In this document: positions 6,858 through 32,000 of the stretch, in pieces
Layout: the number at the start of each line of letters is the position of its first letter
Position numbering within the stretch: position 1 is the first letter of the stretch
Source: Comamonadaceae bacterium
GTDB lineage: Bacteria; Pseudomonadota; Gammaproteobacteria; Burkholderiales; Burkholderiaceae_C
Reading direction: 5' to 3'
Assembly (NCBI GenBank): GCA_947447615.1
Contig: CANFJQ010000007.1
Location: 10,428 to 42,427 of the forward strand
DNA: 32,000 bases
Translations under genes and position numbers: made by a program
Notes under the pieces: generated by a model
Seen by the model: only the letters and a program-made list of their open reading frames with translations
Database searches by the model: none
Told to the model about the DNA's origin: nothing

Positions 6858-6869
6858 CGGACGGCTTAT

Positions 6870-8492: not shown

Positions 8493-8543
8493 AAAACTAG
8501 GGTTGCGCCTGGCCTGCGTGTGCGGGGATAGGGCGCGTCGCCT

Positions 8544-9916: not shown

Positions 9917-9919
9917 GAA

Positions 9920-10996: not shown

Positions 10997-11105
10997 TGCT
11001 TCTCCAGAAGGGGCCGGGGTAAGACCGTAAAATCGAAGGCTGATTCTATCGGGCGCGCCCCGATTCCCCTCTCGCAGGCACGCCTGCCCCAGCCCCGCCC
11101 ATTCC

Positions 11106-12158: not shown

Positions 12159-12219
12159 TTACGCGGCTGACACAATAGGTCGTTAGGATGCGCGCCTGTT
12201 GAATAGAAAGGGACTTTGC

Positions 12220-13014
12220 ATGCACCAAAAGAAACCTTATTTTGCGCACTTATTTTGCGGACTTGGCGCACTCGGACTGCTTGCATTTTTTAATGCAGCC
12301 ATAGCCCAAAACGCAGTGCCCGCAGCGCAAGCCGCCAGCGGCGCAGTTACTGCGGTGGTGACGACCAACCCCTACGGATTAGAAGCCCTTTGGGAAGGCT
12401 CGGACCTGGTAACCAAAATGGTCTTGCTGCTGCTCCTGATCATGAGCATGGGTAGCTGGTACATCATGATTGTCAAGGTGCTGGAGCAAAGCAAGATGGG
12501 CCGCCAAGGCAAAGACGCCCAAGCATTTTGGAGTGCTGCCACTGTGGCCGAAGGCACGGCAGCGTTATCGCAAGAAAGCCCCTACCGTTTCTTAGCCGAT
12601 GCCGCTGGCGCGGCGGTCAACAAGCACCACGGCCTGATGGGCCATATCCCTCTCAATGACTGGATCGCCATGGCCATCCAGCGGGCGGTGGACCGGGTGC
12701 AGAGCAATACCCAAAACGGCCTGGCCTTTTTGGCCACCGTAGGCTCCACCTCTCCCTTTGTCGGCTTGTTTGGCACGGTCTGGGGCATCTACCACGCGCT
12801 CACTGCCATCGGCATCTCCGGCCAAGCCTCTATCGACAAAGTAGCCGGCCCCGTGGGCGAAGCGCTGATCATGACAGCCATCGGCCTGGCAGTGGCCGTG
12901 CCCGCAGTGCTGGCCTACAACTGGCTAGTGCGCCGTAATAAAGCGGTGATGGACGAGGTGCGCGCCTTTGGCAACGACCTGCACGCCGTGGTGCTGGGCA
13001 CCATCAAGAACTAA
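12220..13014 (+). CDS. exbB: MotA/TolQ/ExbB proton-channel protein
   Basis: Channel motif GLFGTVWGI...GPVGEALIMTAIGLAVAVPAV. The ATG at 12220 is preceded by agaaaggg. It is followed by two exbD genes and tonB. Confidence 0.85.
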   Translation: MHQKKPYFAHLFCGLGALGLLAFFNAAIAQNAVPAAQAASGAVTAVVTTNPYGLEALWEGSDLVTKMVLLLLLIMSMGSWYIMIVKVLEQSKMGRQGKDAQAFWSAATVAEGTAALSQESPYRFLADAAGAAVNKHHGLMGHIPLNDWIAMAIQRAVDRVQSNTQNGLAFLATVGSTSPFVGLFGTVWGIYHALTAIGISGQASIDKVAGPVGEALIMTAIGLAVAVPAVLAYNWLVRRNKAVMDEVRAFGNDLHAVVLGTIKN

Positions 13015-13044
13015 GGCCCGCTTTTTCTTCGCAGGCGCAGCACT

Positions 13045-13473
13045 ATGGCAATGAACGTGGGCCCTGGCCCTGATGACAACGACGCGGTCATCTCTACCAT
13101 CAACACCACGCCTTTGGTCGATGTGATGCTGGTCTTGCTGATCATCTTCCTGATCACCATCCCCGTGGTCACCACCGCCATCCCGGTGACCCTGCCCAAA
13201 GAGCGCATTGAGGTGCGCGAGACCAAGCCGGAGAACGTCATCATCTCGGTGGATGCGCAAAGCAATATCTTTTGGTACGAAGCGCGCGTGAGCAACGTAG
13301 AGGCGCTAACCGAGAAGCTGAAGAAAGTCGCCACCCAAAAGCCCCAACCCGAGGTGCAAATCCGGGGTGACCTGGCCGCGCGCTACGAAGGCGTAGGCAA
13401 GGTGCTGCTGGCCTGCCAGCGCGCAGGCATTGTCAAGGTGGCCTTCATCACCGAACCGCCTCCCCTGAATTAA
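13045..13473 (+). CDS. exbD: biopolymer transporter ExbD (copy 1)
   Basis: ExbD/TolR signature INTTPLVDVMLVLLIIFLI; 142 aa. Confidence 0.9.
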   Translation: MAMNVGPGPDDNDAVISTINTTPLVDVMLVLLIIFLITIPVVTTAIPVTLPKERIEVRETKPENVIISVDAQSNIFWYEARVSNVEALTEKLKKVATQKPQPEVQIRGDLAARYEGVGKVLLACQRAGIVKVAFITEPPPLN

Positions 13474-13495
13474 AGCGCAGCAGGACACTTCCACC

Positions 13496-13921
13496 ATGGC
13501 CATGAACATTGGAAACCGCGGCGCCAGCGACGAGCCAGAGCTGATGATGGAGATCAACACCACGCCGCTGATTGACGTGATGCTGGTCTTGCTGGTGATG
13601 CTGATCATCACCATCCCCATCCAGCTGCATGCGGTGAACCTGGAAATGCCGGTGGGCGCGCCGCCGAATCAGCAAAAAATGGAAAAAATCCAGATCGATA
13701 TTGATTCGGCCAGCGTGGTTTATTGGAACGGGCTCGCGATGTCAGGCACAGAGTTGGACCAAAAAATGCAGGCGATTGGCCAATGGGCCGTGCAGCCGGA
13801 GGTGCATATCCGCCCCAACAAGGATGCGCGCTATGCGGTGTTTGCCCATGTGCTCTCGGGTACCAAGCGCCACGGGCTGACCAAGATTGCCGTGATCGGC
13901 GCTGAGCAATTTGTCCAATGA
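13496..13921 (+). CDS. exbD: biopolymer transporter ExbD (copy 2)
   Basis: ExbD/TolR signature INTTPLIDVMLVLLVMLII; 141 aa. It overlaps the tonB start by 4 nt. Confidence 0.9.
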   Translation: MAMNIGNRGASDEPELMMEINTTPLIDVMLVLLVMLIITIPIQLHAVNLEMPVGAPPNQQKMEKIQIDIDSASVVYWNGLAMSGTELDQKMQAIGQWAVQPEVHIRPNKDARYAVFAHVLSGTKRHGLTKIAVIGAEQFVQ

Positions 13922-14694
13922 GCGCTTTGGGTGAATTGGCGACCTCTAGCCGTGGCGCCAGCAGCGCCTGGCCTCACGGTTTTGGGCAGCAGGACAAAAG
14001 CCGCAGGCTCAAAGGCATTGCCTTTGTGCTGGTCGTGCATTTGGTGGTGGGCTATGTACTGATCTCCGGCCTGGCGCGCCAAGGGTTGACAATTCTCAAA
14101 AAGCCGCTTGAGGCGGTACTTATCCAAGAGGTAATCATCCCACCGCCACCACCGCCGCCTCCCCCACCGCCCAAGAAAATCGAGCCGCCGCCCGAGATGC
14201 CCAAGGTACAGGCGCCGCCGCCACCTTTTGTGCCGCCGCCGGATGTTCCGCCACCGGTAGCGACTACCGCACCAGTAATTCAAGCTGCACCGACACCGCC
14301 GCCCACGCCGCATGTGATTGCGCCGCCACCTCCTCCCGCCCCTCCGGCACCGCCTGCGCCTGCGCCTGCGCCTGCGCCTGCGCCAGCGCCACCGGCGCCA
14401 CCCCCACCCGCACCAGCGGTCTCACCGACACCCAAGGCAGTAAGTAATGTGTGCCCTAATGCAAATGCAGCTGAAAACAAACCCAATTACCCCCGTCGCG
14501 CATTTCAAGATGGTGTGCAAGGGGAAGTCGTCGTGCAAGCATTGATAAAAAACGGGCGCATACAGGAAGTCAGTTGGGTGTCAGGCCCCAAGGTTTTTAT
14601 GAATGAAATCAAGGCCGCCATGGGCAAGTACAAATGCAATGGCGACTACGAAGGCCTGGTGCCCGCTGTTTTTTCCTTCAAACTGGATGAATGA
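13918..14694 (+). CDS. tonB: energy transducer TonB
   Basis: N-terminal TM anchor, a very long Pro-rich spacer (PPPPPPPPPPPKK, APAPAPAPAP), and a C-terminal TonB domain (YPRRAFQDGVQGEVVV). Confidence 0.85.
   Translation: MSALGELATSSRGASSAWPHGFGQQDKSRRLKGIAFVLVVHLVVGYVLISGLARQGLTILKKPLEAVLIQEVIIPPPPPPPPPPPKKIEPPPEMPKVQAPPPPFVPPPDVPPPVATTAPVIQAAPTPPPTPHVIAPPPPPAPPAPPAPAPAPAPAPAPPAPPPPAPAVSPTPKAVSNVCPNANAAENKPNYPRRAFQDGVQGEVVVQALIKNGRIQEVSWVSGPKVFMNEIKAAMGKYKCNGDYEGLVPAVFSFKLDE
14351..14392 (+). repeat. Tandem hexanucleotide repeat (cgcctg x5, then cgccag and cgccac) inside tonB, encoding (Pro-Ala)n
   Basis: Read directly: cgcctgcgcctgcgcctgcgcctgcgcctgcgccagcgccac. Confidence 0.9.
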
Positions 14695-14709
14695 TCCAGT
14701 AGGGGCGAC

Positions 14710-15585
14710 TCAATTGGACTCGCGCCGTTTGCCCAATTGCCGTCTCAGCAAATCCACTTGGCTGCTGATAGCCTCAGCATCAACCACGTCATTGGCATTG
14801 ACGACGTAGCACTCCAGGTCTGCCAGTGCTTCCCCGTGGTTACCAAGCATAGCGTGGGCCAGGCCCCGGTCGCGGTATTCGGACCAGGCTTCGGGCGCCA
14901 GCACGATCAGCCGCTCTTGCACCGCAAGCCATTGGCTGCCGTGTTTTTGGCTGCGGAAAATCTCTTTCAAATTACGCAGCATGCGCGTCAGGATGTCGCG
15001 CGGTGGGGAGGCTTGCAAATACAGGCCTAGCGGCACCTCAAAATCCGCCCCGTGCTTGCCGCCCAAGCGGTAGGGTTCGAGCATTTCCTTGAGCTCTTCG
15101 CGGCTGAAAGACTGCCCGTTCATCGGGTCGATAACCGCCTGCCCTGCGGGCAGCGGCACCTTGATTAAAAAATGCCCGGGGAAGCTAACGCCCTTAGCAT
15201 CGAGCCCCAGGCCTTGCGCCAGTTCCAACCAGATGACGGCCATCGAGATGGGGATACCGCGCCGCGTCTCCATGACCTGGTGTAGATAGCTGTTATCGGG
15301 TGCGTAATAGTCGTTGAGGTTGCCGGCAAAGCCTAGCTCTTGGTAGAAAAAGCGGTTGAGTGCCATCAAGCGGGCCATGCCCGCAGCATCGGCGGGCACG
15401 CGCTTGCGTAAGCGCATTTGCCATTGGTCCATGCGCGAAAGTGTGGCTTGCACGTCCAGGTCGGCATCGCGCATATAGCCCAATGCGGCAGCAGCTTCAA
15501 ACAGGGGAAAGCCGCCGTCGCTGTGCACCAGGGACGCGAAATACGCCAAGGGGCTGGGCGGTTCAAAAGAAAAATCCATGCGCAA
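14710..15585 (-). CDS. SirB1/YchA-like protein (transglutaminase-like N-domain plus TPR-like C-domain)
   Basis: 291 aa. The call rests on recalled family resemblance (VIWLELAQGLGL...GVSFPGHFLIK, followed by a helical TPR-like tail). It has not been verified by search. Confidence 0.55.
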   Translation of the reverse strand: MRMDFSFEPPSPLAYFASLVHSDGGFPLFEAAAALGYMRDADLDVQATLSRMDQWQMRLRKRVPADAAGMARLMALNRFFYQELGFAGNLNDYYAPDNSYLHQVMETRRGIPISMAVIWLELAQGLGLDAKGVSFPGHFLIKVPLPAGQAVIDPMNGQSFSREELKEMLEPYRLGGKHGADFEVPLGLYLQASPPRDILTRMLRNLKEIFRSQKHGSQWLAVQERLIVLAPEAWSEYRDRGLAHAMLGNHGEALADLECYVVNANDVVDAEAISSQVDLLRRQLGKRRESN

Positions 15586-23120: not shown

Positions 23121-23228
23121 TCAAGCCAACCTATCAGTAGCCGTTAATTTGCTGTATTGCCGCTCAATCATCGCCGCACTATTGCCCATCTGCCTAGCCA
23201 GCGTTTGTATGTCCGTGCTGTTAGCCAT
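23121..23228 (-). pseudogene. Orphan 3' fragment of a tyrosine integrase gene (last ~35 codons)
   Basis: Encodes MANSTDIQTLARQMGNSAAMIERQYSKLTATDRLA*. This parallels the C-terminus of the integrase at 23794-23910 (MDIYTLARQMGNSAAMIERHYSKLTATMAAARLA*). The DNA-level similarity is readable by eye, with one indel block. Confidence 0.8.
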
Positions 23229-23268
23229 TTGTTGAATTTACCGAAAATTGATGACTCTAAAATGAGAA

Positions 23269-23742
23269 TTACTCTCTTCTTTTTGGAAGAGCGGGGGTGG
23301 TTGTATCTGATTTGGTAAACCCTTTAACAACGCCACGAAATCCTTTTACTTGAACACAAAAATCTTGAACCCATGGAAGTGGCTCGTTAGTTGCAATACT
23401 CCAAGTCGGATTTACTAGAATATCGGAACTTTGATCTTTTGCATTTGCAATCCTGAGGGCATCGAACATAGCAGCAGCCTTTGCTCTATCCAATGGAGTC
23501 TTGGGTTCATTGCCTGAGGTACTTAGGAAGGTGGTGTCTCCTTGGTTATAAAAAGCAAACCACTGACGAGCACAGCCCCTTCCTGCTATCGCTTCCATAA
23601 TTTGAACATCAGCAATTGAGTCTTGTGTATAAATAGTTGGCGCGAAAAAATCAGAAGTTTTATTTGTATCGACAACTGAAGAGCATCCATATAAAAAAAA
23701 TATTGCGCTTGCAATTAAAAGCAAAGAAATAAGTTTTTTCAT
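23269..23742 (-). CDS. lipoprotein, function unknown
   Basis: Signal peptide with lipobox MKKLISLLLIASAIFFLYG-C. Very AT-rich; 157 aa. Confidence 0.7.
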   Translation of the reverse strand: MKKLISLLLIASAIFFLYGCSSVVDTNKTSDFFAPTIYTQDSIADVQIMEAIAGRGCARQWFAFYNQGDTTFLSTSGNEPKTPLDRAKAAAMFDALRIANAKDQSSDILVNPTWSIATNEPLPWVQDFCVQVKGFRGVVKGFTKSDTTTPALPKRRE

Positions 23743-23774
23743 TTTTAAAACTCCAACATTTATATAATCCTAAT

Positions 23775-23791
23775 TGTCGTTTAAAACAGCA
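23775..23791. repeat. Near-copy of the TGTCGT-N5-ACGACA palindrome (tgtcgtttaaaacagca)
   Basis: Shares 13 identical nt (tgtcgtttaaaac) with the copy at 26185. It lies directly after the integrase stop codon. Confidence 0.6.
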
Positions 23792-23793
23792 CC

Positions 23794-25923
23794 TCAAGCC
23801 AACCTTGCCGCCGCCATAGTGGCAGTCAGTTTGCTGTAGTGCCGCTCAATCATCGCTGCACTATTGCCCATCTGACGAGCCAGTGTGTATATGTCCATCC
23901 TGTTCGCCAGCAGTACCTGCGTCGCATAGGTGTGTCTTAGCGAATATAGGGTTCGGATTTTCTCTGCCCCATCCACGAATAAGCCAGCATCCCTAAGCAG
24001 CCGTCTAAATGTTCCATTGAAACTCAAAGGCTGATAACCATTATGGATGCGAAATAATTTCTGACATAACCTCTGCTGGAATAACGCTTCAAACTCTATG
24101 TGCTGTATGTTTGCTTGCCTTAGGTGCAGCCGCTTTAATACTGCGACCGCCTCGTGCCGGGCTATCAACCACCTGCCCCCGGTCTTTCCATCCACCCACA
24201 CCCGCAAATACCTCGTGCCCTTGTCCGTGTGCCACTCCAAGTGCCGCCAGCATATGCCCATAGCCTCTGTGCCGTGCCGCATACCGGTGTAGAGCAGCAT
24301 TTACACGTAATCCACTAGCAGGTAGCGGATTTCGCCTTCCACTGCCTTGACCGCCCGATCCTTCCAAGTCTCCATATGAAAAGCCGGCTCTGACCAAGCG
24401 GCTCTCAGTACGGCAAGTGTATTTACAAATGCTGGCCAGATTCTGGACCATCCGCGCAATTTATCGTCTGGTCGCATACGGTTACTTTGTCCTTGGTGCC
24501 ATGCACTGAGTGCTTGGATTATCAATCAGGCGTATTCCACTGCAAATTGGCTAAAAAATATCAAGGCACAGACAGCGCCGTTATTTATTCAAGATACTTT
24601 CCACCACCCTGGGAGACTTTTTGTGACCGTAAGAATTATATAAATGATAGCGTGGCGCAACATAGATATCGCTTATGTCTGTAGGCACATCAGTAAATAA
24701 TTTATCGTATTCTCGGTTAATAAAAAAAGCATTCGCGCCATTATGCGAGTTGCAACAAATCAACCTATATCCATATTTGTCAAACATTTCCACCAAGTTT
24801 GTTAACGCTGCGCCAAAATAGTCGTCTCCACTCCACAGATGTTCCGGATCGTAGGCTATCTGGAATTTTGCTGGAGGAATAAATTTACCATTATATTCAG
24901 CGATGAATAACTTCGGGTGAATATCATTAGCCAATAATTTTTCCAGAAAATAAATATCGTTACCATCTAAGTCAAGAGACAATATGTCAATCTCACTTGC
25001 ACCCAAGGCTTTCATGCCTGAATGCGCGTGTACCAAAACGTTATCGATGGTAATCCAAGATTGGATATTATGGAACTTAGTGGCTTTACTGTAGTCAAAA
25101 ACCAAGTCCTCTCCACCAACCCAGAATCCCTTCCAACCACAGGCTGCAAGTATTAGGGTATTGTTTTCAAGACCATTGCCCACGCCAAATTCAGCATAAA
25201 CGCCACTTGATAAACCCAACCTTCGCACAATTTCCAAAGTAATGCCATCCTCATCCGTCTGGGAAAAGCATTTTTTTCCGAAACTGTTCAGGGGATTTTT
25301 ATGGGCGGCTTGTAACTGCTTGGTTTGAAAATCCAACTGCAAATCTTTAAATTGCGCCAATAAGCGCAACATCGACTGCTGAATTTGGGCGCTCGCAAGA
25401 ATATTTTTATCAATATTTTCGATTCGCAAATCAAAATTCTTTAAGACGTCTAAATCAGTCATAAATCTCGCGCCCTCAAAATTCGTTGTTAAAGTCGTTA
25501 CTACCGCGCATGCTTAATGCGCCAGATAAACGATGCCGAGCTTGAAGTGTAAGGGGTCAATTTTGGGTGGCATTCAACAGCCAGTGTCAGTTGGGCAATC
25601 TGTGCAAACAGGTGTGTTCGGTGTGCTAAGCCCAACCTGGTGCGGTAGCGGGCTTCATCGTATATATCGCAGGCACGGGCTATGGCTGCTTCTATGCTGC
25701 TCGCTCCAGTAGTCTGTCTGTGCCAAGCACCTGAGGGAAGACGGAAGCGGCATTGGTAGCGTTGGCTGCGGCTGCGGCGATAAACCGTCAATGCACCATC
25801 ACGCAGGACTATCTGTTTGGGTGGGTTGGTGGCGGACGATGGAGGGGTGTGGCGGACTGGGGCGGCGGCTTGGGCTTTAAGGGTAAGCGACTCAATCACC
25901 ACCGCACCTGACTGGACAAACAA
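23794..25923 (-). pseudogene. Tyrosine recombinase (phage-type integrase), disrupted
   Basis: The N-terminal piece (25501..25923) carries LTVYRRSRSQRYQCRFRLPSGAWHRQTTG...YDEARYRTRLGL. The middle piece (24301..24525) and the catalytic C-terminus (23794..24300: LLYTGMRHGTE, LRHTYAT, ERHYSK) are in one frame but separated by a TAA at 24301-24303. The stretch 24526-25500 is replaced by an unrelated low-GC gene. Confidence 0.8.
24581..25462 (-). CDS. SAM-dependent methyltransferase-like protein (FkbM-type, tentative)
   Basis: EFGVGNGLENNT resembles SAM-binding motif I. IDILSLDLDGNDIYFLEKL...PKLFIAEYN resembles the FkbM-family core. This gene contains the lowest-GC lines I hand-counted (about 30-45%). 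Confidence 0.55.
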   Translation of the reverse strand: MTDLDVLKNFDLRIENIDKNILASAQIQQSMLRLLAQFKDLQLDFQTKQLQAAHKNPLNSFGKKCFSQTDEDGITLEIVRRLGLSSGVYAEFGVGNGLENNTLILAACGWKGFWVGGEDLVFDYSKATKFHNIQSWITIDNVLVHAHSGMKALGASEIDILSLDLDGNDIYFLEKLLANDIHPKLFIAEYNGKFIPPAKFQIAYDPEHLWSGDDYFGAALTNLVEMFDKYGYRLICCNSHNGANAFFINREYDKLFTDVPTDISDIYVAPRYHLYNSYGHKKSPRVVESILNK

Positions 25924-25986
25924 GCATCCAATCCCACAAAGACAAAAGCCACCGCAGGGTCACGGTGGCTTTTGCAAGTATGAATC

Positions 25987-26031
25987 TGGTGGGACGTGCG
26001 GGGGTCGAACCCACGACAAACGGATTAAAAG
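25987..26031 (-). other. 3' half of a tRNA-Lys(UUU) gene, from anticodon loop to CCA; att-site remnant, not a functional tRNA
   Basis: The reverse complement reads CTTTTAA-TCCGT-TTGTC-GTGGG-TTCGACC-CCCGC-ACGTCCC-A-CCA. That is anticodon loop, 3' anticodon stem, variable loop, T arm, 3' acceptor strand, discriminator and CCA. No matching 5' acceptor strand (GGGACGT) or D arm follows. Confidence 0.75.
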
Positions 26032-26184
26032 TGCTTATGCAATTGATAATTCTCCAATGTTTGCAATGTTCTTTCGCCCCCACGCCGTCTTGGTGTGCAG
26101 CAAATTGTGTAGGACAAGTTTTTTGAATGCGGTGCGTGATGGGGCTTGGAAGTATTTGAACTATACCTGTCATGCGTGCGTCAG

Positions 26185-26201
26185 TGTCGTTTAAAACGAC
26201 A
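26185..26201. repeat. Palindrome TGTCGT-ttaaa-ACGACA (exact)
   Basis: Read directly. Intergenic, about 150 nt from the att remnant. Confidence 0.9.
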
Positions 26202-26288
26202 TGTAAATCGCTGCCAATACCCACGCTTTTATGGGGTTCTTGCATGGTTAGCAGCCATTTACTACCCTTAACACCCAGCGTAGCAAGC

Positions 26289-26501
26289 CTATAGCCCAGT
26301 GCTGATACTGCGTTGCTGTCGCTGCCTGCGTTCGTTTTCACGCTGCTGCCGCTGCCTGTCCCGTTCAGCCTGTAGTTGTTGTCTGTCCGTTTCAACATTT
26401 TGTTTCAGCGTTGCTATGCGTGCCTGTGCCGGATTTAGGGGTGGCTTGGGTTTGATGGGTTTGATAGTTATTTCGGCAATACGCATCAAGTATTTACGCA
26501 C
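26289..26501 (-). CDS. hypothetical Gln/Arg-rich coiled-coil protein
   Basis: 70-aa ORF with a GTG start (an ATG lies 5 codons in). It is the last gene of a minus-strand trio. The RBS is weak, so confidence is low. Confidence 0.35.
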   Translation of the reverse strand: MRKYLMRIAEITIKPIKPKPPLNPAQARIATLKQNVETDRQQLQAERDRQRQQRENERRQRQQRSISTGL

Positions 26502-26525
26502 TTGCTGCGTACTGCCTTTTTTGCA

Positions 26526-26672
26526 TCAATCCATCTGCGTGTAGTTCAGCACCATCCCTACACCATACTGAGCCTCTGCTAACTGCTTAGCAGCCCAAGC
26601 ATTCTCAGCGTAGATAACGGTGTTGGCGGTTTGGTAGGGGTTGATGCGTACCCATATCAAGTACTTGTTCAT
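26526..26672 (-). CDS. small hypothetical protein, 48 aa (too short for the ORF track)
   Basis: Hand translation gives MNKYLIWVRINPYQTANTVIYAENAWAAKQLAEAQYGVGMVLNYTQMD*. Its ATG overlaps the TGA of the upstream gene in an ATGA junction, suggesting translational coupling. Confidence 0.45.
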   Translation of the reverse strand: MNKYLIWVRINPYQTANTVIYAENAWAAKQLAEAQYGVGMVLNYTQMD

Positions 26673-27115
26673 TTCCCAAAGCCTGCACGAAGTTTTACTG
26701 ATGCTGCGTCCAGTGCTGCATCCAACTCACCAGCCAGTACCGCCGCCTTAATCAAGTCCAGTGTTGCGGGTAAGTCCTTCTCAGCGGCAATCTCCACTGC
26801 GTACTTCCCACGTGCAAGTTCAAGTAATTTCGTCCCATACCTAACACTCAGGCTCAACTTGCCCGTGTCAGCGACGAACCACCACTGCTTGATGCGTTTG
26901 TTGGTTTGAATGCTTTGGCGTGTGCCAGTGTGCTTGTCCGTAATAGTGCGATAGCGGGTGGGACTAAAGGTAGTACCCGCTGCCTGTGCCCGTGCCAGTT
27001 CTGCCTGTTCCCACAGCCGCTTGGCAAGTTTGTTGCGGCGTAGTTGCACAGGGCTCACGTGCGTGGGCTTTTGTGCTGCTGTCAGTTTCAATCCGGTTAG
27101 TGTTGCAGTAGTCAT
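26669..27115 (-). CDS. hypothetical protein, 148 aa
   Basis: Good RBS (aaggaa about 8 nt upstream of the ATG at 27115) and plausible protein composition (KQWWFVADTGKLSLSVRYG...). No function recognised. Confidence 0.6.
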   Translation of the reverse strand: MTTATLTGLKLTAAQKPTHVSPVQLRRNKLAKRLWEQAELARAQAAGTTFSPTRYRTITDKHTGTRQSIQTNKRIKQWWFVADTGKLSLSVRYGTKLLELARGKYAVEIAAEKDLPATLDLIKAAVLAGELDAALDAASVKLRAGFGK

Positions 27116-27332
27116 TGCTGGTTTCCTTTCTTAGTAGCAATGCAGACAACTTTAGTTTCGGATTTGGCGATTGAGCAACCTCTTTCTGCCACATCAAACT
27201 AATTTACCCAAAACCCTCTAAAAACACCAAATATCGCACCAGTTTTAGCCAGTAATTTCTTTGGTAGTGATAAATAAATGCGAGTGGCGAAGTGAGTTGC
27301 GATGAGTGGCTATGTCACAAGAAACTAAAAAA

Positions 27333-27565
27333 GTTACTTGTTGCAAGTTACACGTAACAGGTTACCCGTTACTTGTTACACGTCACACATGTCACTCGTT
27401 ACCAGTGACTGCGGTGACACAGGTGACGAGTGACACAGGTAACTGGGTAACCAGCAACCAGTAACCGGCAACGCCTTTTTGGCTCTCTGTGACAGAGCAA
27501 CTAAAAGGCAACAGAGGTAACAGGTAACCAATAACGACACAAGCAACTACGCCACTCCAAGTAAC
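27333..27565. repeat. Array of about 20 GTNAC pentamers plus GCAAC variants with 7-9 bp spacing; the orientation of the central base switches near 27403
   Basis: GTNAC start positions: 27333, 27347, 27354, 27361, 27368, 27375, 27382, 27391, 27398 | 27405, 27414, 27423, 27430, 27439, 27447, 27461, 27489, 27517, 27524, 27561. GCAAC starts: 27454, 27468, 27497, 27508, 27543. Confidence 0.9.
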
Positions 27566-27590
27566 TTCAATCATTTAAGGAGATAAAAAT

Positions 27591-28052
27591 ATGAAGAGCC
27601 AAAGAGAAATCGCAGTACGTCTGTACGCCAATCCCAAACTGGGAACCACCTACGCTAAAGGCATGTACCACTCAGCAGTATTTAACGCCGCTGCAGATGT
27701 TAAACATCCCTATGCCAAGTACCTGCTGGACTACCACACCTATGAGCGATGGGAGCATTCAGCCAAAACGGATGAACAGATGCAGGTGCTGCGTGAGACA
27801 CATGGCATGACTGCCACTGATGCACTTTTTAGTTGGGTGGTGCAGTACGACCCCAGCACCAAAGCCAAGCAGCCCGTCTTTGGGTTTAGTTACCTGAACC
27901 TGGCAGACAACTCACTGGGCTTACTGGTAATGCCTGAAGGTGAGGACGAACCCGCACAATGGATACTGACTGCCAAGCCCTGCAAAGAACGCATGGGCTG
28001 CAAGAGCCCTACCCTGCTGGCTACCAACGCAGATGACTTGGGCAGTTGGTAA
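27591..28052 (+). CDS. hypothetical protein, 153 aa
   Basis: Strong RBS (taaggagataaaaatATG). No domain recognised. Confidence 0.65.
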   Translation: MKSQREIAVRLYANPKLGTTYAKGMYHSAVFNAAADVKHPYAKYLLDYHTYERWEHSAKTDEQMQVLRETHGMTATDALFSWVVQYDPSTKAKQPVFGFSYLNLADNSLGLLVMPEGEDEPAQWILTAKPCKERMGCKSPTLLATNADDLGSW

Positions 28053-28660
28053 TTAAACAGCCCAGCGGGTTTAGCGTATTTAAACCGCCAAATCCGCTGT
28101 CCTAGCACCTGCCCTGCTACCCATGTAGGGCTATTCAGTGTGTGTCTATGTAGGTGTATGTAATTCCACGTGCAGTCACATTGCTGTTCATCAAAACACA
28201 AATGACATGCCACGTCCTAAGTGGGAATAGGTGATGCACATGACAGGTGACTTAGATTAAAACCACCAGCACTGATTAAACAGAAACCACGCAGATTATG
28301 CACAGCAGGTTTTTTGACTGCTGCTATAGAGGGGGCGGACTACTTTGCACAGCAGCACCTCAAATCCAGCGATAGTGCGGCGATACACCACCTAGCAAGG
28401 GCTTGGGTGCTGGGCACTGCGTAGGCTACGTGTAGGGCGTTTTACGCTGTACGTCTGCATCTGTTCCGCATCTGTGTCCGCTGCCCCACACCCAGCACTA
28501 AATAGTCAATACCAAAGAGAATTAGTAATCTACTTGCTCGGCAGTGCAAGTCATTGAAATTGAACGAATCAGCAATACACCGCCACTTTGGCGGGTTTCG
28601 GTTGCCCTCTCTGCGGCTAAGACTACATACTGCAACAACACAAACTATTTGGAGAAAAGA

Positions 28661-29233
28661 ATGGCAGCAGCAAAATCCCTAACCCCCGCAGAAATTGAGC
28701 GTGTTTTGCAATACATGTCCCACCGCTCTTTTGCACAACGCAATCGTGCCATGCTGATGATGACGGTGGCAGCGGGCTTGCGGGTTGGAGAAGTGGCGGG
28801 ACTTACGCTGGGTGATGTGCTTGAGGACGATGGCTCCGTGCGTGGCGAGATTTACCTTGCAGCACATCGCACCAAGCACAACCATGCAAGAACCATTTAC
28901 CTCAACACCAGGCTACAGGCGGAACTGGCTGCTTACATCCAACAGAGAACCGTTCGTCCCGCAAACTTTCCCCTGTTTCCCACCAATAGGGGCGATAGGT
29001 GTGCGTTCAGTGCAAATACCCTCACCCAGCACTTCTTTTGGATTTACAAGCGGGCTGGGCTAAAAAATTGCAGTTCGCACAGCGGACGCAAGACATTTAT
29101 AACCTCACTCGCATCGCAAGGGGTTAGCGTGTTTGTACTCGCTTCCCTCGCCGGGCACCTATCCATTGCTACCACCCAAAAATATGTGACTGTGAATGAC
29201 GACATCAAGCGTAGGGCGGTGGAGTTGGTTTGA
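28661..29233 (+). CDS. minimal tyrosine recombinase, catalytic domain only (~190 aa)
   Basis: The ATG at 28661 is preceded by ggagaaaaga. Catalytic pattern: AGLRVGEV (Arg), HSGRKTF (H-x-x-R), and GHLSIATTQKY (His...Tyr). The listed upstream extension from 28544 is unlikely to be real. Confidence 0.8.
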   Translation: MAAAKSLTPAEIERVLQYMSHRSFAQRNRAMLMMTVAAGLRVGEVAGLTLGDVLEDDGSVRGEIYLAAHRTKHNHARTIYLNTRLQAELAAYIQQRTVRPANFPLFPTNRGDRCAFSANTLTQHFFWIYKRAGLKNCSSHSGRKTFITSLASQGVSVFVLASLAGHLSIATTQKYVTVNDDIKRRAVELV

Positions 29234-29581
29234 CTATTTGCCAATGTAGAAAACGACATCGGCTTTCTTAACCTTACGTACCCTTGCTTTGGACATGTCA
29301 ATTTGAAATATTGGACCGCGTGTCTTTAGCCTGTGCTTGAACCACAGACAATACACTTCTACATCCTGCCATCCATCAAAATCAGTTAGAACCTTTTCGG
29401 GCTTAGCCAGTACAAAGGTGCCGCCGAAATGTGCGTTTCTATAGGTTGCATGTGGTGCGTCAATCACTGTCATGTTTTCCACAGTGATGGAATCCACAGT
29501 TCTACCTTTAGGATATGTGTGAGGACAACGGTGCTTGGGTACATCATCGTTCCAAATCGGTGCTGAAAAATACTCATTCAT
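29234..29581 (-). CDS. hypothetical protein, 115 aa
   Basis: The ATG at 29581 has aggag 9 nt upstream. It lies downstream of, and on the same strand as, the 244-aa regulator gene. Its stop codon directly abuts the recombinase stop codon. Confidence 0.55.
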   Translation of the reverse strand: MNEYFSAPIWNDDVPKHRCPHTYPKGRTVDSITVENMTVIDAPHATYRNAHFGGTFVLAKPEKVLTDFDGWQDVEVYCLWFKHRLKTRGPIFQIDMSKARVRKVKKADVVFYIGK

Positions 29582-29628
29582 ACTTGGCACTCCTACCAAA
29601 AATTGTTAATTAGCAAGACACACCCTAT

Positions 29629-29645
29629 TGTCGGGTAACACGACA
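29629..29645. repeat. Near-copy of the palindrome (tgtcgg-gtaac-acgaca)
   Basis: One mismatch in the left arm. Intergenic, between the 244-aa gene stop and the 115-aa gene start. Confidence 0.7.
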
Positions 29646-29647
29646 CC

Positions 29648-30382
29648 CTAGCGGCTATTTGGAAACTGCCCCTTACCCGTGTTGGCGACGATGCGGGCGG
29701 CATCTTTGAAATAGCGACTAACGGTGGCTGCCATCACGCTTCTCTTATCCATCGCCTCACTGACGGTGTCTTTGGGGTTGGGCATGGCGGTTTTAACCAA
29801 ACCCAAGTCAGCACCAATTTTTGCTAATGTCTTTTTTACCCCTCCCCGCCGCACCGCCATCACCTCGTCATAGACAGCCAGTTGCTGCTTAAGCGTTTTA
29901 GTGCTGACATTGCGGTGCAGTTTGTATCGGGCGTTACTTGCATCTTTGTCACTTAGGGCTTTACGCCCCCGCTTACCTCCATGTCGCTGCTTTAACAAAC
30001 GGGCGAAAAATCCCTGCAAGTAGCGTTTAGATATGTCCAGCGGCACAGCCACCACCATCACCTTGTCCTTAGTCCATGCAGCATCCCATTCGCTGGGATT
30101 TGCAAGTTCCATCAATTTGACGGGTTTGGACTTTTCCGCAAACAGGCGGTATCCATGTTGTCCCCACCACTGCTTAAAGGTGTCGTGTGAAACGACACCA
30201 AAGTCAGCGTACAGGGCTGCCATCTCACCCGTGCCGCCAGCAGCACAACAGGCGGCATAGGCTTCATTACGCCGCAAGAACTCCCACCACCAGTAGTAGG
30301 GGCTGTCCTCCTGCGTACCTGTAAGGGAAGACTTCTTTCCACGTCCCCACGTAGGGTGCTGTCCTTTAAAAACTATGCCCAT
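29648..30382 (-). CDS. putative transcriptional regulator with an N-terminal YYWWWEFLRRN motif and a C-terminal HTH-like segment
   Basis: The W-E-F-L-R-R-N motif is one I recall from an uncharacterised N-terminal domain of regulators on integrative/conjugative elements; this is unverified. KTLAKIGADLGLV looks like an HTH. Confidence 0.6.
   Translation of the reverse strand: MGIVFKGQHPTWGRGKKSSLTGTQEDSPYYWWWEFLRRNEAYAACCAAGGTGEMAALYADFGVVSHDTFKQWWGQHGYRLFAEKSKPVKLMELANPSEWDAAWTKDKVMVVAVPLDISKRYLQGFFARLLKQRHGGKRGRKALSDKDASNARYKLHRNVSTKTLKQQLAVYDEVMAVRRGGVKKTLAKIGADLGLVKTAMPNPKDTVSEAMDKRSVMAATVSRYFKDAARIVANTGKGQFPNSR
30181..30197. repeat. Palindrome TGTCGT-gtgaa-ACGACA (exact; extended form ggtgtcgt...acgacacc)
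   Basis: Read directly. It lies inside the 244-aa gene, where it encodes G-V-V-S-H-D-T. Confidence 0.9.
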
Positions 30383-30420
30383 ATTGTATTAACACTCTAA
30401 TTACATCTAATGTACTGCTA

Positions 30421-30450
30421 CTGACACAAGGTGACTATACCAAATATAAT
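30421..30450 (+). promoter_or_regulatory. Candidate sigma70-type promoter for the 294-aa gene
   Basis: ctgaca (30421-30426), then 18 nt, then tataat (30445-30450), in an AT-rich divergent intergenic region. Pattern match only. Confidence 0.35.
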
Positions 30451-30605
30451 TTACCCATGTTCAACGCATCGCCGTTTAACTGAAAAGTTCATTAAAAATC
30501 AACGACTTATATACCTTAAACGTCTTCTGACGCTAACGCCTTGTGCGTATCTTTGTATCTCTTTTGGGTTCTTTATTTTTAACATTCTATTTGAAAGAAA
30601 ATTGT

Positions 30606-31487
30606 ATGACTACTTCTACTATCAACTCTGCCGCTAACGCAACCGCCAATGCTGCAACACCTGTCGTGTCACACGACACCCCCGCTATCAGCCCGCTAAT
30701 GGCTGCTGCACTGACTGCCGCCAACAAGGGCGTCAATGAAGCAATTTTCACGCTGGAACGCTTGGAAGGGGAACGTGAGACTTGGGAGACAAAGGAATTG
30801 GCTGCCAGCCGCAACCGTCTGTACTCCCTGCTGACGGACTGCTACTCCTACTACCTGTCTATGAAAACGGACAACCGTGCCGCAGTGCGGGAACAATTCA
30901 AAAAGGGATTGGAAACCTTCATCACCGTACGCAAATACACCTTTACCCCTACATCGCACGACATTAACAAAATCGTTAAGTCTGTGTTTGGGGTGGAACG
31001 TCGTCGTGTCAGTGCCTACAGCCTGGCACTTCGTGCAGCACTCACTGGTGGTGCAAAGGACGCACAAGGTAAGCAGCACCCCGTGCCTGCTGCTGACTTG
31101 GCGGCTTGGTTGGAACAGCAAGGCGGCGTGGAGGAGGTGCGTATGGGTAGCAAAAACGCAGGCATGACTGTGAAAGAACGTGCAGACGTTGCAAAAACCG
31201 CACTTCAATCTGCGGTGCTTATGACGCTTAAGGCTGACGCAAAAGTCATGCCCTTTGACACGGATGACGTGGATAAGATGATGGTGCTAGTTGCTACCTA
31301 CCGCCCCAACGGTGAATTGGACATTAGTGCTGTCGTAAAAAACGACACCGCCGTACGTGCCGCACTGGCTGCGTATTACAGCGGCAACAAAGAGGGTGTG
31401 CAACAGGCTGCTGACAAGGCGGCAAACGAACCTGCACCTGAGAGTGCCATCACGCTGGCACTGGCACAAACCGCCTCTGTCCAATAA
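30606..31487 (+). CDS. hypothetical protein, 294 aa
   Basis: The ATG at 30606 is preferred over the listed GTG at 30543. Ala-rich and helical, with no domain recognised. It contains two copies of the palindrome. Confidence 0.6.
   Translation: MTTSTINSAANATANAATPVVSHDTPAISPLMAAALTAANKGVNEAIFTLERLEGERETWETKELAASRNRLYSLLTDCYSYYLSMKTDNRAAVREQFKKGLETFITVRKYTFTPTSHDINKIVKSVFGVERRRVSAYSLALRAALTGGAKDAQGKQHPVPAADLAAWLEQQGGVEEVRMGSKNAGMTVKERADVAKTALQSAVLMTLKADAKVMPFDTDDVDKMMVLVATYRPNGELDISAVVKNDTAVRAALAAYYSGNKEGVQQAADKAANEPAPESAITLALAQTASVQ
30662..30678. repeat. Palindrome TGTCGT-gtcac-ACGACA (exact; 8-bp arms)
   Basis: Read directly. It encodes P-V-V-S-H-D-T in the 294-aa gene. Confidence 0.9.
31331..31347. 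repeat. Palindrome TGTCGT-aaaaa-ACGACA (exact)
   Basis: Read directly. It encodes A-V-V-K-N-D-T in the 294-aa gene. Confidence 0.9.
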
Positions 31488-31509
31488 ACAATCAACTTCA
31501 ACTTAGGAC

Positions 31510-31536
31510 ATGGGAGGGGCAACCCTCCCATTTTTA
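31510..31536 (+). terminator. Rho-independent terminator after the 294-aa gene
   Basis: Stem atgggaggg, loop gcaa, stem ccctcccat, followed by ttttt. Confidence 0.8.
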
Positions 31537-31541
31537 TTGCT

Positions 31542-32000
31542 ATGAACATTTATCCATCAAACTTTAATAGCCCCTTTAAACCCACCGCACTGGCAGACTT
31601 TGTCATCAGCGATGACGCATCCCGCACCCAGTTGGACAGCATCGTTAATGGACGGCTGCCATTTCCCCTGTTTGGTAAGAACGCAATCTGCCTGTGGGGT
31701 ATTAACGGCAGCGGCAAAAGCACACTGGCACTGATGCTGCCTCAACTATTGGAACAATCAGCCCGCCTGATTGGTTCGCAGCGGGCAGCAGGTATGTTTG
31801 CAAGTTCTCACTACTGGGAACTGACGGAGTGTGCAATTGGTATGAACAGCCTGTCCATGCTTACGGACTTGAACAAGCGTTGCAAGGACATGATGGCGAC
31901 AAGTCCCAGTGGCTGGCACTATGAGGTGTTGGACGAAGTGGATTTGCTAACCCCTGCTGCAATGGCGGGGCTGAAAACTGCCATCACGTTTGCAAACAGC
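31542..32000 (+). CDS. AAA+ ATPase, clamp-loader (T4 gp44 / RFC small subunit)-like; 3' end lies outside the window
   Basis: Hand translation gives MNIYPSNFNSPFKPTALADFVISDD...GRLPFPLFGKNAICLWGINGSGKSTLALML...HYEVLDEVDLL. That is a KP-x-x-L-x-D-F box, Walker A and Walker B in the RFC/gp44 order. It is open to the end of the window and is not in the ORF track. Confidence 0.6.
   Translation, partial: MNIYPSNFNSPFKPTALADFVISDDASRTQLDSIVNGRLPFPLFGKNAICLWGINGSGKSTLALMLPQLLEQSARLIGSQRAAGMFASSHYWELTECAIGMNSLSMLTDLNKRCKDMMATSPSGWHYEVLDEVDLLTPAAMAGLKTAITFANS

Follow-up and report, generated by a model that had tools for sequence, protein, structure and literature searches.

A 17-bp palindrome, TGTCGT-N5-ACGACA, recurs along a ~10-kb tRNA-integrated mobile element (element 2) in the window, the whole 32,000-nt stretch of DNA analysed here, and is shared by about 100 related elements; the pattern first noticed is thus genuine and widespread. 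On balance, the palindromes probably represent distributed recognition sites for a dimer of an element-encoded 293-aa protein, which would work in a KorB/ParB-like manner while standing outside that family.

An initial sequence-only reading had listed four exact copies (26185, 30181, 30662 and 31331), a copy with one mismatch at 29629 and a degenerate copy at 23775 in a neighbouring decayed island (island 1), and a motif scan confirmed them all, with two mismatches in the last. The sites are as follows.

23775..23791, degenerate site TGTCGTTTAAAACAGCA, island 1, 2 bp past the stop of an integrase pseudogene
26185..26201, S6, TGTCGTTTAAAACGACA, intergenic, 3' of a 70-aa gene and ~160 bp inward of the att/tRNA fragment
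29629..29645, S1, TGTCGGGTAACACGACA (one mismatch), 2 bp past the 244-aa gene stop and 47 bp 5' of the 115-aa gene start
30181..30197, S3, GG-TGTCGTGTGAAACGACA-CC, within the 244-aa gene, residues 62-68 (GVVSHDT)
30662..30678, S2, TGTCGTGTCACACGACA, perfect 8-1-8 palindrome, codons 19-25 of the 293-aa gene (PVVSHDT)
31331..31347, S4, TGTCGTAAAAAACGACA, C-terminal beta-strand of the 293-aa protein (AVVKNDT)

The number of exact copies is beyond chance, as had been argued from the letters alone: none arose in 100 dinucleotide-preserving shuffles, versus four in the real sequence. Allowing two mismatches gives 8 matches versus 0.64 expected, six of them within or next to the element; the two at 8231 and 21431 are no more than chance would yield. 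The copies at 29629, 30181, 30662 and 31331 share a rightward continuation, ACGACACC, in agreement with the first reading, and the 26185 copy continues as ACGACATG. At 30181, TGTCGT is preceded by GG, which makes the site the full GGTGTCGT...ACGACACC; the other copies have different dinucleotides there. The kinship noticed between the island-1 copy and the 26185 copy holds as well, with TGTCGTTTAAAAC in common, and S1 and S6 are indeed the two intergenic copies of element 2, past the 244-aa stop and near the att tRNA fragment. The extended palindrome is GGTGTCGTGT-N-ACACGACACC (17-21 bp), composed of two inverted half-sites with the consensus RSTGTCGTKT.

The sites are distributed among the following features.

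23794..25923, minus strand, integrase pseudogene of the family of the relatives' 430-aa integrase, in a decayed sister element (island 1)
25982..26027, minus strand, 3' ~46 nt of a tRNA (CTTTTAA anticodon loop, T-arm, CCA), att junction of element 2 and island 1
26669..27115, minus strand, DUF6641 protein, conserved core gene, apparently not the determinant of site specificity
28661..29233, plus strand, 190-aa tyrosine recombinase (catalytic domain only), conserved core gene, apparently not the determinant of site specificity
29648..30382, minus strand, 244-aa protein bearing a DUF6499-like motif (WWWEFLRRN) and, at the C-terminus, a possible extended-turn helix-turn-helix, divergent from the 293-aa gene
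30421..30463, overlapping divergent sigma-70-like promoters (11/12 and 9/12 matches), about midway between S3 and S2 (centres ~13 bp apart)
30606..31487, plus strand, 293-aa protein, best candidate for the site-specific binder, tracked by motif class
31542..32000, plus strand, 5' part of the gene for an AAA+ ATPase of RFC/clamp-loader type, which runs off the window

The integrase pseudogene is split by a 40%-GC ORF (24581-25462), and the relatives adjoin complete tRNA genes. A GTNAC array lies at 27314-27565.

A scan of homologous elements had been proposed as a check, and the motif is present in them: around 80 metagenomic homologues of the 293-aa protein, 235 sites occur in 463 kb versus 13.7 expected. 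Relatives in freshwater Betaproteobacteria carry the identical half-site. In particular, a Limnohabitans element (L001) contains seven exact copies and one near copy, with none in its flanks, and in the window no copy with one mismatch or fewer occurs in the host part, all of them lying within the element. These comparisons, in which motif frequency in the host was scored on the DNA flanking the elements, support the view that the palindromes are element-specific and conserved in homologous elements.

Within the relatives, the sites occupy recurrent slots, whose counts overstate independent events because many sites are homologous copies of few slots: a site is found past the 244-aa gene stop in 44 of 60 class-A loci (S1-type), in the first 210 nt of the 293-aa homologue ORF in 55 of 72 (S2-type), in the last 240 nt of that ORF in 15 of 72 loci (S4-type), and past the AAA+ gene stop in 44 of 62. 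The S1-type slot lies 2-5 bp past the stop in classes A, C and D and at the ORF end in class B. Extra copies are located past the integrase and small-recombinase genes and near att; in three relatives (L010, L031 and L032), intact sites just past the integrase stop correspond to the position of the island-1 copy. Variant palindromes keep the GTC-N9-GAC geometry (GTCCAG/CTGGAC, GTCCTG/CAGGAC, GTCAWT/AWTGAC and GCGTCGATTT...GGACGC), and 14 loci have identical half-sites spaced 2 bp wider. At L010 and L012, sibling elements of different motif classes lie side by side in one genome.

The reading frames originally given for the three in-gene copies are correct. The rule drawn from them, that the frame is always the same, survives as a strong tendency but not as a law: the frame in which GTC encodes Val and GAC encodes Asp is used by 93 of 100 exact intragenic sites across relatives, against 53-56% for look-alikes with 3-4 mismatches, and only about 10-12 of the positions are independent. 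The further proposal that a constraint on the DNA shapes protein sequence is borne out at two sites. In the S2 slot at the 5' end of the 293-aa gene, identical half-sites are read as VVxNDT at N5 and as VVSNTT at N7; in the 244-aa family, the ancestral FGDVRxDDF is replaced by FGVVS(H/N)DTF in the window, L001 and L033, and this change of a conserved Asp to Val completes S3. Because the peptide switches with spacing and the Asp is lost at S3, the conserved entity is the DNA and not the peptide. S2 lies within the hypervariable, disordered N-terminus of the 293-aa protein, and the S4 peptide VVK(N/S/D)D is conserved in its 293-aa clade.

Palindromes of this kind might instead form functional hairpins in single strands, whether of RNA (as 3'-end stabilisers, terminators or nut-like elements) or of DNA during transfer or replication; the first reading had already raised the version in single-stranded DNA. 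Every exact copy folds as DNA into a stem of 6-8 bp (-5.5 to -9.1 kcal/mol), many copies lie directly 3' of stop codons, and boxB-type hairpins are similar in size to these stems. However, at variable positions of 172 unique sites, complementarity between the arms is not in excess (0.52 vs 0.49, 0.56 vs 0.62 and 0.30 vs 0.36 expected), and changes in degenerate copies go uncompensated. The stems in the window are not followed by T-runs, the sole overlapping terminator-like match (31363-31342) is a different stem that covers only half of S4, and no HUH/relaxase gene was found in the element. Moreover, the sequence itself, not just its pairing, is conserved across >100 elements and changes with the protein module. 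Since the arms vary independently, the sites are better understood as paired half-sites on double-stranded DNA, and hairpins are very unlikely. Such independence supports the behaviour expected for a dimeric binder of double-stranded DNA; the original idea of sites for a dimeric DNA-binding protein thus appears sound with respect to specificity, conservation and independent half-sites, but the 244-aa protein, proposed there for binding tests, is not supported as the binder.

The 244-aa protein could bind the palindromes as its operators if it were an FseA/RovC-like activator (DUF6499 plus an extended-turn helix-turn-helix) whose dimer sits on inverted hexamers. It has the WWWEFLRRN motif and a weak match to PF20109 (E 0.0095), FseA dimers bind inverted hexamers (PMC10359603), and a site is found at or within 5 bp of the gene end in every motif class and inside the gene in some elements. 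However, the Pfam score of 16.7 is below the cut-off of 23.8, DUF2285 was not detected, a fold search with the AF2 model (pLDDT 79) recovered neither RovC nor any other PDB match, and the hexamers of FseA are 15-16 bp apart versus 5 bp here. The motif also dissociates from the protein both ways: 48 class-A loci encode 244-family proteins that share just 25-30% identity with that of the window, and 16 loci whose 244-aa proteins are 41-73% identical have no class-A motif (L032 likewise shows dissociation). This HTH-like protein is therefore not supported as the binder, as the motif type follows the 293-aa and AAA+ module, and the operator explanation is distinctly improbable. S2 lies ~200 nt downstream of a predicted promoter, and no palindrome is present in the predicted promoter region (30421..30463), an arrangement atypical for a simple repressor.

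Identity within versus between motif classes is 54% versus 24% for the 293-aa family and 58% versus 26% for the AAA+ protein; the corresponding values are 57% versus 50% for the small recombinase and 54% versus 48% for DUF6641, and the DUF6641 proteins of two L010 elements of differing motifs are 84% identical. Class-A elements use five different tRNA targets, and thus the integrase is not the determinant of the motif. The putative recognition helix of the 293-aa family differs by motif class, and no repeated GTC-N9-GAC palindrome was found in four loci with no detectable 293-family or AAA+ gene (L009, L020, L021 and L022). These correlations suggest that the motif type follows the 293-aa protein and the RFC-like AAA+ protein, not the 244-aa protein, the small recombinase, DUF6641 or the integrase. 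The AAA+ gene is always directly downstream of the 293-aa homologue; because the pair is never separated, the AAA+ protein or an unnoticed small gene of the module may be the determinant instead. The 293-aa family (1066 representative clusters) is uncharacterised, and comparison with Pfam, PDB and BFVD gave no match and no recognisable DNA-binding domain. Its structure model is of only moderate confidence (pLDDT 71), and residues 119-147 (INKIVKSVFG-VERRRVSAYSLALRAAL) form a putative helix-turn-helix.

The same module resembles a replication unit, in which the 293-aa protein would be an origin-binding initiator, the AAA+ protein a helicase loader or initiator ATPase, and the palindromes iterons, some within the initiator gene as in lambda ori; lambda O/P, DnaA/DnaC and split Orc1/Cdc6 with ORB boxes are possible models. 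The order of binder and then ~230-aa AAA+ protein is that of phage initiator/loader pairs, the AAA+ protein has weak DnaC-like and ORC/Cdc6-like matches alongside those to RFC, two sites lie within the binder's own gene, and a small replication module is present in similar cargo elements that target tRNAs (bioRxiv 10.1101/2020.12.28.424599). However, the sites are dispersed at ~0.1-1 kb over the whole element rather than clustered by an AT-rich unwinding region, and the best-conserved slots are the 3' ends of genes. No circular contigs were among those examined, and primase, helicase and polymerase genes were not found in the core. A replicative role is accordingly unlikely.

Alternatively, the palindromes might be crossover sites of the 190-aa tyrosine recombinase in a shufflon, invertase or resolution system, and inversion between the oppositely oriented, in-frame copies at 30181 and 30662 would give each of the two divergent genes the N-terminus and promoter of the other. 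A conserved FimB-sized recombinase does adjoin the module, and the 30181 copy, once reverse-complemented, matches the 30662 copy at 16 of 17 positions and shares its codon frame. Nevertheless, similarity of the recombinase ignores motif class (71% for an A-versus-C element, 61% for A versus B), and ~140 homologues of the 244- and 293-aa proteins (at least 80% query coverage) are all collinear, with no chimeras. The symmetry of the sites extends to a single central base, so that there is no asymmetric overlap of 6-8 bp, from which tyrosine-recombinase sites take their direction; moreover, central bases vary between copies of one element. Crossover is hardly credible.

Under the preferred explanation, a symmetric dimer of an element-encoded protein, most likely the 293-aa protein, would read the two inverted half-sites on double-stranded DNA, and the palindromes would mark the element as self. 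The sites would bracket and penetrate the divergent regulatory module, past the 244-aa stop, within the ~70 opening codons of the 293-aa gene and past the AAA+ stop. The AAA+ partner may assemble or remodel site-bound dimers into a higher-order complex. This complex might govern the element as a whole, insulating the 244/293 promoters and repressing them by a roadblock or loop, and/or hold or segregate the excised element, as KorB-OB or ParB-parS sets do. Divergence of half-site and spacing between sibling elements would prevent cross-talk, and where intergenic room is lacking, sites would enter coding sequence in one tolerated frame (GTC-GTN...NAC-GAC).

Among known systems, tycheposons, which are cryptic cargo elements that target tRNAs (bioRxiv 10.1101/2020.12.28.424599), and the 'additive' flexible genomic islands of streamlined plankton (PMC10872708) resemble the carrier element in layout, with an inward tyrosine integrase by a tRNA, partial-tRNA repeats, variable cargo, a small conserved module at the other end, and tandem and decayed copies. 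The words 'palindrom' and 'AAA' are absent from the text of the tycheposon preprint. FseA, a dimer on an inverted repeat, controls the mobility of an integrative element (PMC10359603). The 244-aa protein has the hallmark WEFLRRN helix and a possible long-turn helix-turn-helix as in FseA/RovC (DUF6499 plus DUF2285), but its Pfam match is sub-threshold, it has no structural match to RovC, and the motif does not track it; the FseA box is a single promoter-proximal hexamer pair 15-16 bp apart, whereas the 6-5-6 palindromes are dispersed. Lambda O has dyad iterons within its own coding sequence, followed by the gene of a loader-type partner. Dyad sites inside the gene of the candidate dimeric binder and a loader-type partner next to it recall this arrangement, and in both cases sites within the binder's coding sequence constrain the peptide. 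In lambda, the iterons form a cluster of four next to an AT-rich region; in contrast, only two of five sites lie in the 293-aa gene, 670 bp apart, and the most conserved slots are the 3' ends of other genes.

In KorB-OB (IncP, RK2) and ParB-parS, a short palindrome of 13-16 bp is repeated ~5-12 times per replicon, with many copies off promoters or in genes, among them the gene of the binder itself (as for parS in spo0J); the site is replicon-specific, an NTPase is the partner, and specificity variants separate co-resident replicons. Similarly, the palindrome described here (17-21 bp) is repeated, lies off promoters and inside genes, including that of the candidate binder, and is element-specific, with an NTPase partner and specificity variants between co-resident elements. 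Here, however, the sites are carried by a tRNA-integrated element of ~10 kb and not by a plasmid or the origin region of a chromosome, and the partner is an RFC-like AAA+ protein instead of a ParA/IncC Walker ATPase; proteins that bind centromeres or operators are not known to have RFC-like AAA+ ATPases as partners. Neither profile nor fold comparison matched the 293-aa protein to ParB/Srx or KorB. As such comparison revealed no ParB/KorA/KorB-type protein or ParA in the element, the KorA/KorB/parS idea of the first reading fails in family membership but fits in the distributed layout of the sites.

Four exact copies of the palindrome TGTCGT-N5-ACGACA lie in the window (starts at 26185, 30181, 30662 and 31331). 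None was found in 100 dinucleotide-preserving shuffles, which bears out the claim of the sequence-only reading that the exact copies exceed chance. When up to two mismatches are allowed, the window holds eight matches against 0.64 expected, six of which fall within 23775-31347, and the host part of the window has neither an exact copy nor one with a single mismatch. The copies at 29629, 30181, 30662 and 31331 extend beyond the core as ACGACACC, and in several copies the symmetry runs down to one central base (e.g., TGTCGTGT-C-ACACGACA at 30662); the full candidate site for the 293-aa protein encoded among these copies takes the form GGTGTCGTGTCACACGACACC. The integrated element that carries the set starts at approx. 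26028, extends past the right end of the window, and is organised as follows.

Features of the integrated element and its left junction
approx. 25982-26027, minus strand: 3' approx. 46 nt of a tRNA, att junction
26185-26201: palindrome copy S6
26289-26501, minus strand: 70-aa gene
26669-27115, minus strand: DUF6641 gene
27314-27565: dense GTNAC array
27591-28052, plus strand: 153-aa gene
28661-29233, plus strand: 190-aa tyrosine recombinase, catalytic domain only
29234-29581, minus strand: 115-aa gene
29629-29645: palindrome copy S1
29648-30382, minus strand: 244-aa gene, which holds copy S3 (30181)
30421-30463: divergent promoter-like pair (predicted)
30606-31487, plus strand: 293-aa gene, which holds copies S2 (30662) and S4 (31331)
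31510-31531, plus strand: intrinsic terminator
31542 onward, plus strand: start of the AAA+ gene

The terminator, which lies between the stop of the 293-aa gene and the AAA+ start codon, is strong (a 9-bp stem with 6 GC pairs, then TTTTATT), and its position suggests that expression of the ATPase is attenuated relative to its 293-aa partner. To the left of the tRNA fragment, island 1 (23124-25923) is what remains of a sibling element that has decayed. A 293-aa ORF of 40% GC (24581-25462), which gave no family match, divides the integrase of the island, a member of the family found in the relatives, into C-terminal (23794-24519) and N-terminal (25501-25923) portions. A 92-nt duplicate of the integrase 3' end (23136-23227) is 85% identical to 23818-23909, and the degenerate palindrome of the island is found 2 bp past the integrase stop. 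The divergent intergenic region between the DUF6641 and 153-aa genes contains 21 GTNAC pentamers in approx. 250 bp, partly with an exact 7-bp period (27347-27386); because the pentamer is at chance level over the whole window (75 found vs 77 expected), this is a local array, for which possible roles are a second set of binding sites or an origin. GTTAC palindromes also occur in two related loci, L014 (at 3584, in the equivalent DUF6641/153-aa intergenic region) and L023 (at 8170 and 13384). Elsewhere, a host ORF carries five copies of a 6-bp tandem repeat, GCCTGC/GCAGGC (14351-14381). The T-arm region of the tRNA fragment reads CACGACA (26012-26018), the right half-site of the motif, and the tRNA-Phe targets of relatives have GTGTCGG; the match may be a coincidence.

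Relatives of the element are numerous. More than 250 homologues of the 244-aa protein were found, mostly in freshwater metagenomes, and genome and metagenome scans yielded approx. 110 loci. Their common core order is tRNA, integrase, cargo, AAA+ (minus strand), 293/242-aa (minus), 244-aa (plus), small recombinase, DUF6641 and a 62-70-aa gene; the hosts are Limnohabitans, Polynucleobacter, Methylophilaceae, Dechloromonas, Polaromonas and Oxalobacteraceae, and the tRNA targets include Phe, Met, Pro and Cys/Gly. In a Limnohabitans element (L001), the palindrome occurs eight times (seven copies exact, one near), always within the element, and its flanks (approx. 10 kb) have none. Around 80 metagenomic homologues of the 293-aa protein, GTCGT-N5-ACGAC with at most one mismatch occurs at 235 sites in 463 kb, where 13.7 are expected, with the consensus RSTGTCGTK-N3-MACGACASY. 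The motif is conserved among relatives, and it is specific to the elements, the latter as had been proposed from the window. Moreover, its positions recur. In 74 loci with the motif type of the window (class A; denominators differ per slot), a site lies in the first 210 nt of the 293-aa ORF in 55/72, within 120 nt past the 244-aa gene stop in 44/60 (usually 2-5 bp away), after the AAA+ gene stop in 44/62, after the small-recombinase stop in 39/58, and in the last 240 nt of the 293-aa ORF in 15/72. Loci with variant palindromes fill the slot after the 244-aa gene as well: in classes C and D the site lies 2-5 bp past the stop, and in class B it falls where the ORF ends. Literature searches with the motif string and with DUF6641 returned nothing relevant; the finding is real, general and without earlier description in the sources searched.

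Searches of other collections were largely empty. Neither blastn of 26000-32000 nor tblastn of the 293-aa protein matched plasmids or phages; tblastn of the 244-aa protein matched three Bradyrhizobium plasmids and nothing else, and the context there was uninformative. IMG/VR yielded no relative of that protein, and the extended pattern gave seven single matches in it, on seven contigs; these are unclustered and fit chance, and there is therefore no helper-phage signal. No circular contigs were found among the element loci, PADLOC reported no defence system (the AAA+ protein gave only generic ATPase matches, TRIP13 and IetA), and Rfam returned a single weak, implausible match to a plant miRNA model. 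In L014, pairs of palindromes (AGCGTCGATTTAAGCGACGCT-like and TGTCGTTTTAAACGACA) 28-43 bp apart recur four times downstream of tRNA-Phe (11163/11205, 16539/16567, 17034/17076 and 20510/20553) and may be what is left of stacked element ends.

In other relatives the palindromes differ in sequence and keep the geometry GTC-N9-GAC: CGTCCAG-N3-CTGGACG, AGCGTCCTG-N3-CAGGACGCT, AGCGTCAWT-N3-AWTGACGCT and AGCGTCGATTTTTNGGACGCT. A further variant, AAGTGTAGGTT-N-AACCTACACTT, retains the outer GT/AC and has GTA...TAC instead of GTC...GAC. The second palindrome type of some relatives, AGCGTC-N9-GACGCT, is not enriched in the window. In addition, 14 loci (including L070, L072, L090, L096, L102, L105, L106, L109 and L112-L114) have a spacing variant, TGTCGTG-N5-CACGACA, in which the half-site of the window is kept and the halves stand 2 bp wider apart (N7 rather than N5 between them). 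The 293-aa homologues that accompany this variant make up a clade of their own; as the N7 loci group into a single clade whichever protein is compared, spacing is uninformative on candidate binders. Two loci, L010 (1761-5830 vs 8018-14415) and L012 (1235-5233 vs 6563-15037), each hold adjacent sibling elements in one genome that use different palindrome classes, as would be expected if divergence of specificity avoids cross-talk or incompatibility. A host global regulator acting through CRP, LexA or LacI-type boxes is rejected because siblings in one genome use different classes and because the host DNA compared has no copies.

The class of the motif tracks the 293/242-aa family and the adjoining AAA+ protein. 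Within-class and between-class identities are 54% and 24% for the 293/242-aa proteins, 58% and 26% for AAA+, 57% and 50% for the small recombinase, and 54% and 48% for DUF6641; the DUF6641 proteins of the two L010 elements are 84% identical despite their different motifs. No GTC-N9-GAC palindrome is repeated in L009, L020, L021 and L022, loci in which neither a 293-family nor an AAA+ gene was detected. In the 293-aa protein, the helix-turn-helix predicted for residues 119-147 shows conservation inside each class and divergence from class to class, reading RRRVSAYS (A), RKRAQGYG (B), RKRAYNYA (C) and RRRAHNYA (E). The HTH-like 244-aa protein, which the sequence-only reading had named for binding tests, is doubly dissociated from the motif and is not supported in that role: 48 class-A loci have 244-family proteins just 25-30% identical to that of the window, and 16 loci with 244-aa proteins 41-73% identical to it lack the class-A motif. 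The evidence is correlative; since the 293-aa and AAA+ genes never separate, we can only infer that a dimer of the 293-aa protein binds the palindromes. The 293-aa family comprises 1066 representative clusters and has no match in Pfam, the PDB (by fold and profile) or BFVD. The partner ATPase most resembles RFC small subunits and clamp loaders; it is without the collar domain.

The same palindromes could alternatively form hairpins on single-stranded DNA, as had also been suggested. Across 172 unique sites, arm complementarity at the variable positions is no higher than expected from base frequencies: 0.52 observed vs 0.49 expected at pair 6/10 (G or T, 53/45%), 0.56 vs 0.62 at pair 7/9, 0.30 vs 0.36 at flank -2, and 0.32 vs 0.36 at flank -3. 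Moreover, changes in degenerate copies are uncompensated in the other arm, which tells against the hairpin alternative. The modest stem energies of the copies are simply what any palindrome yields. Intrinsic terminators and selected hairpins were rejected on the chance-level complementarity and on the lack of any T-run after the palindrome stems in the window; the terminator scan gave one overlapping terminator-like match (31363-31342), which has a different stem and covers only half of S4. Judged by these substitution patterns, the palindromes behave as pairs of half-sites in double-stranded DNA, not as hairpins.

The constraint on DNA is written into proteins. Of the three intragenic copies, the one in the 244-aa gene encodes GVVSHDT and the two in the 293-aa gene encode PVVSHDT and AVVKNDT, exactly as first read. 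The 5' site of the 293-aa gene falls within a disordered, hypervariable N-terminus, where it encodes x-V-V-x-(N/H)-D-T in 47 relatives with N5 spacing and V-V-S-N-T-T in 13 relatives with N7 spacing and identical half-sites. In the 244-aa protein, the ancestral peptide FGDVRxDDF, present in all classes, is FGVVS(H/N)DTF in the window, L001 and L033; an otherwise conserved Asp has become Val (GAC to GTC), and further changes complete the S3 palindrome. The proposal that a DNA-level constraint shapes the peptides is upheld by both the spacing effect and this replacement. The accompanying claim that the reading frame is always the same stands as a strong preference and not as a rule: 93 of 100 exact intragenic sites are in the frame GTC = Val, GAC = Asp, against a codon-usage background of 53-56% for look-alike sequences and with only about 10-12 independent intragenic slots behind the count, and the copy in the integrase gene uses another frame (LSFETT). 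The simplest explanation is that proteins tolerate the site only where it is read as the benign Val-Val...Asp-Thr. The sites thus provide a clean natural example of dual coding, in which a DNA-binding code lies within unrelated proteins and the peptide shifts when the site spacing shifts.

Taken together, the comparisons show an element-specific, conserved set of paired half-sites that co-evolves with a protein module. A 293-aa dimer and its AAA+ partner would build a complex that spans the module together with both ends of the element. About midway between S3 (centre 30189) and S2 (centre 30670) lie the predicted divergent promoters, with no site inside them, and the two operons are bracketed by S1 and the post-AAA+ site. 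Such an arrangement is consistent with control by roadblock, looping or insulation, or with a centromere-like function, and does not fit a classical operator. The main functional rival is that the protein pair serves as a replication initiator; that the sites are dispersed and no iterons cluster counts against it. A more speculative proposal, which we regard as rather unlikely, is that the 293-aa protein and the RFC-like AAA+ form an undescribed element-maintenance machine. In it, a sequence-specific adaptor would read a distributed and rapidly diversifying palindrome code across the approx. 10-kb element, and an AAA+ motor, standing where known systems have ParA-type ATPases or CTP switches, would silence, insulate or segregate the element; divergence of half-sites and spacing would define incompatibility or immunity groups, allowing tandem stacking at tRNA sites in streamlined freshwater bacteria. 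A large family of entirely uncharacterised proteins, which numbers more than 1000 clusters at 50% identity, is tied together with its AAA+ partner to a precise candidate DNA site that has natural variants of specificity and spacing, and the biochemistry of the pair becomes directly testable. The palindrome also supplies a sequence signature by which a widespread family of small integrative elements with cargo can be found and typed in Betaproteobacteria that are abundant in fresh water (Limnohabitans, Polynucleobacter, Methylophilaceae), where such elements build "additive" genomic islands.

Several known systems offer points of comparison. Core sites of tyrosine recombinases (lox, FRT, dif, sfx) consist of inverted arms around an asymmetric overlap of 6-8 bp, the same in both partner sites. 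The palindromes are symmetric to one central base, and the central bases differ among copies of one element, so they were rejected as sites of this kind, as was the idea of inversion or a shufflon. Sites determined by a recombinase were also rejected: the small recombinase is 61-71% identical across motif classes (71% between a class-A and a class-C element), and the large integrases of class-A elements use five different tRNAs, because of which integrase arm sites are rejected as well. In a lambda-type origin, iterons cluster by an AT-rich unwinding element; here, the two sites within the 293-aa gene are 670 bp apart and the remaining sites are spread over at least 5 kb. The 244-aa protein contains WWWEFLRRN, with the WEFLRRN hallmark of DUF6499, as in FseA (PMC10359603). 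However, FseA/RovC proteins have a Pfam-threshold DUF6499 (AWEFLRRN), a DUF2285 extended-turn HTH and the fold of the RovC crystal structure, whereas the 244-aa protein scores 16.7 bits for PF20109, below the 23.8 cut-off, and does not match PF10074. Precomputed Pfam annotation is empty for all 120 of its homologues listed, a Foldseek search of its AF2 model (pLDDT 79) against the PDB gave no match with E < 4 and did not retrieve RovC, and a fold search against BFVD found nothing. The FseA site consists of promoter-proximal inverted hexamers 15-16 bp apart (PMC10359603), whereas the hexamers described here are dispersed and separated by 5 bp, and the predicted promoters contain none.

The KorB- or parS-like reading first offered holds for the sites and not for the proteins. 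As in ParB-parS and KorB-OB, the palindromes of the window and its relatives are multiple, distributed and replicon-specific, and some are intragenic. The binder in those systems has a ParB/Srx N-terminal (CTPase) domain and a ParB-type HTH, whereas no ParBc or KorB match was found in Pfam or NCBIfam for any element protein, nor for 35 diverse members of the 293-aa family; likewise, the partner there is a ParA/IncC-type deviant Walker ATPase, and the only NTPase of the core here is the RFC-like AAA+. By analogy, the palindrome set would work like KorB-OB or ParB-parS, but it belongs with neither by its binder or its ATPase. The carrier itself resembles in architecture the tycheposon-like or "cryptic" tRNA-targeting cargo elements and additive genomic islands, with an integrase adjoining a tRNA, a partial-tRNA repeat, cargo and a conserved mobility module.
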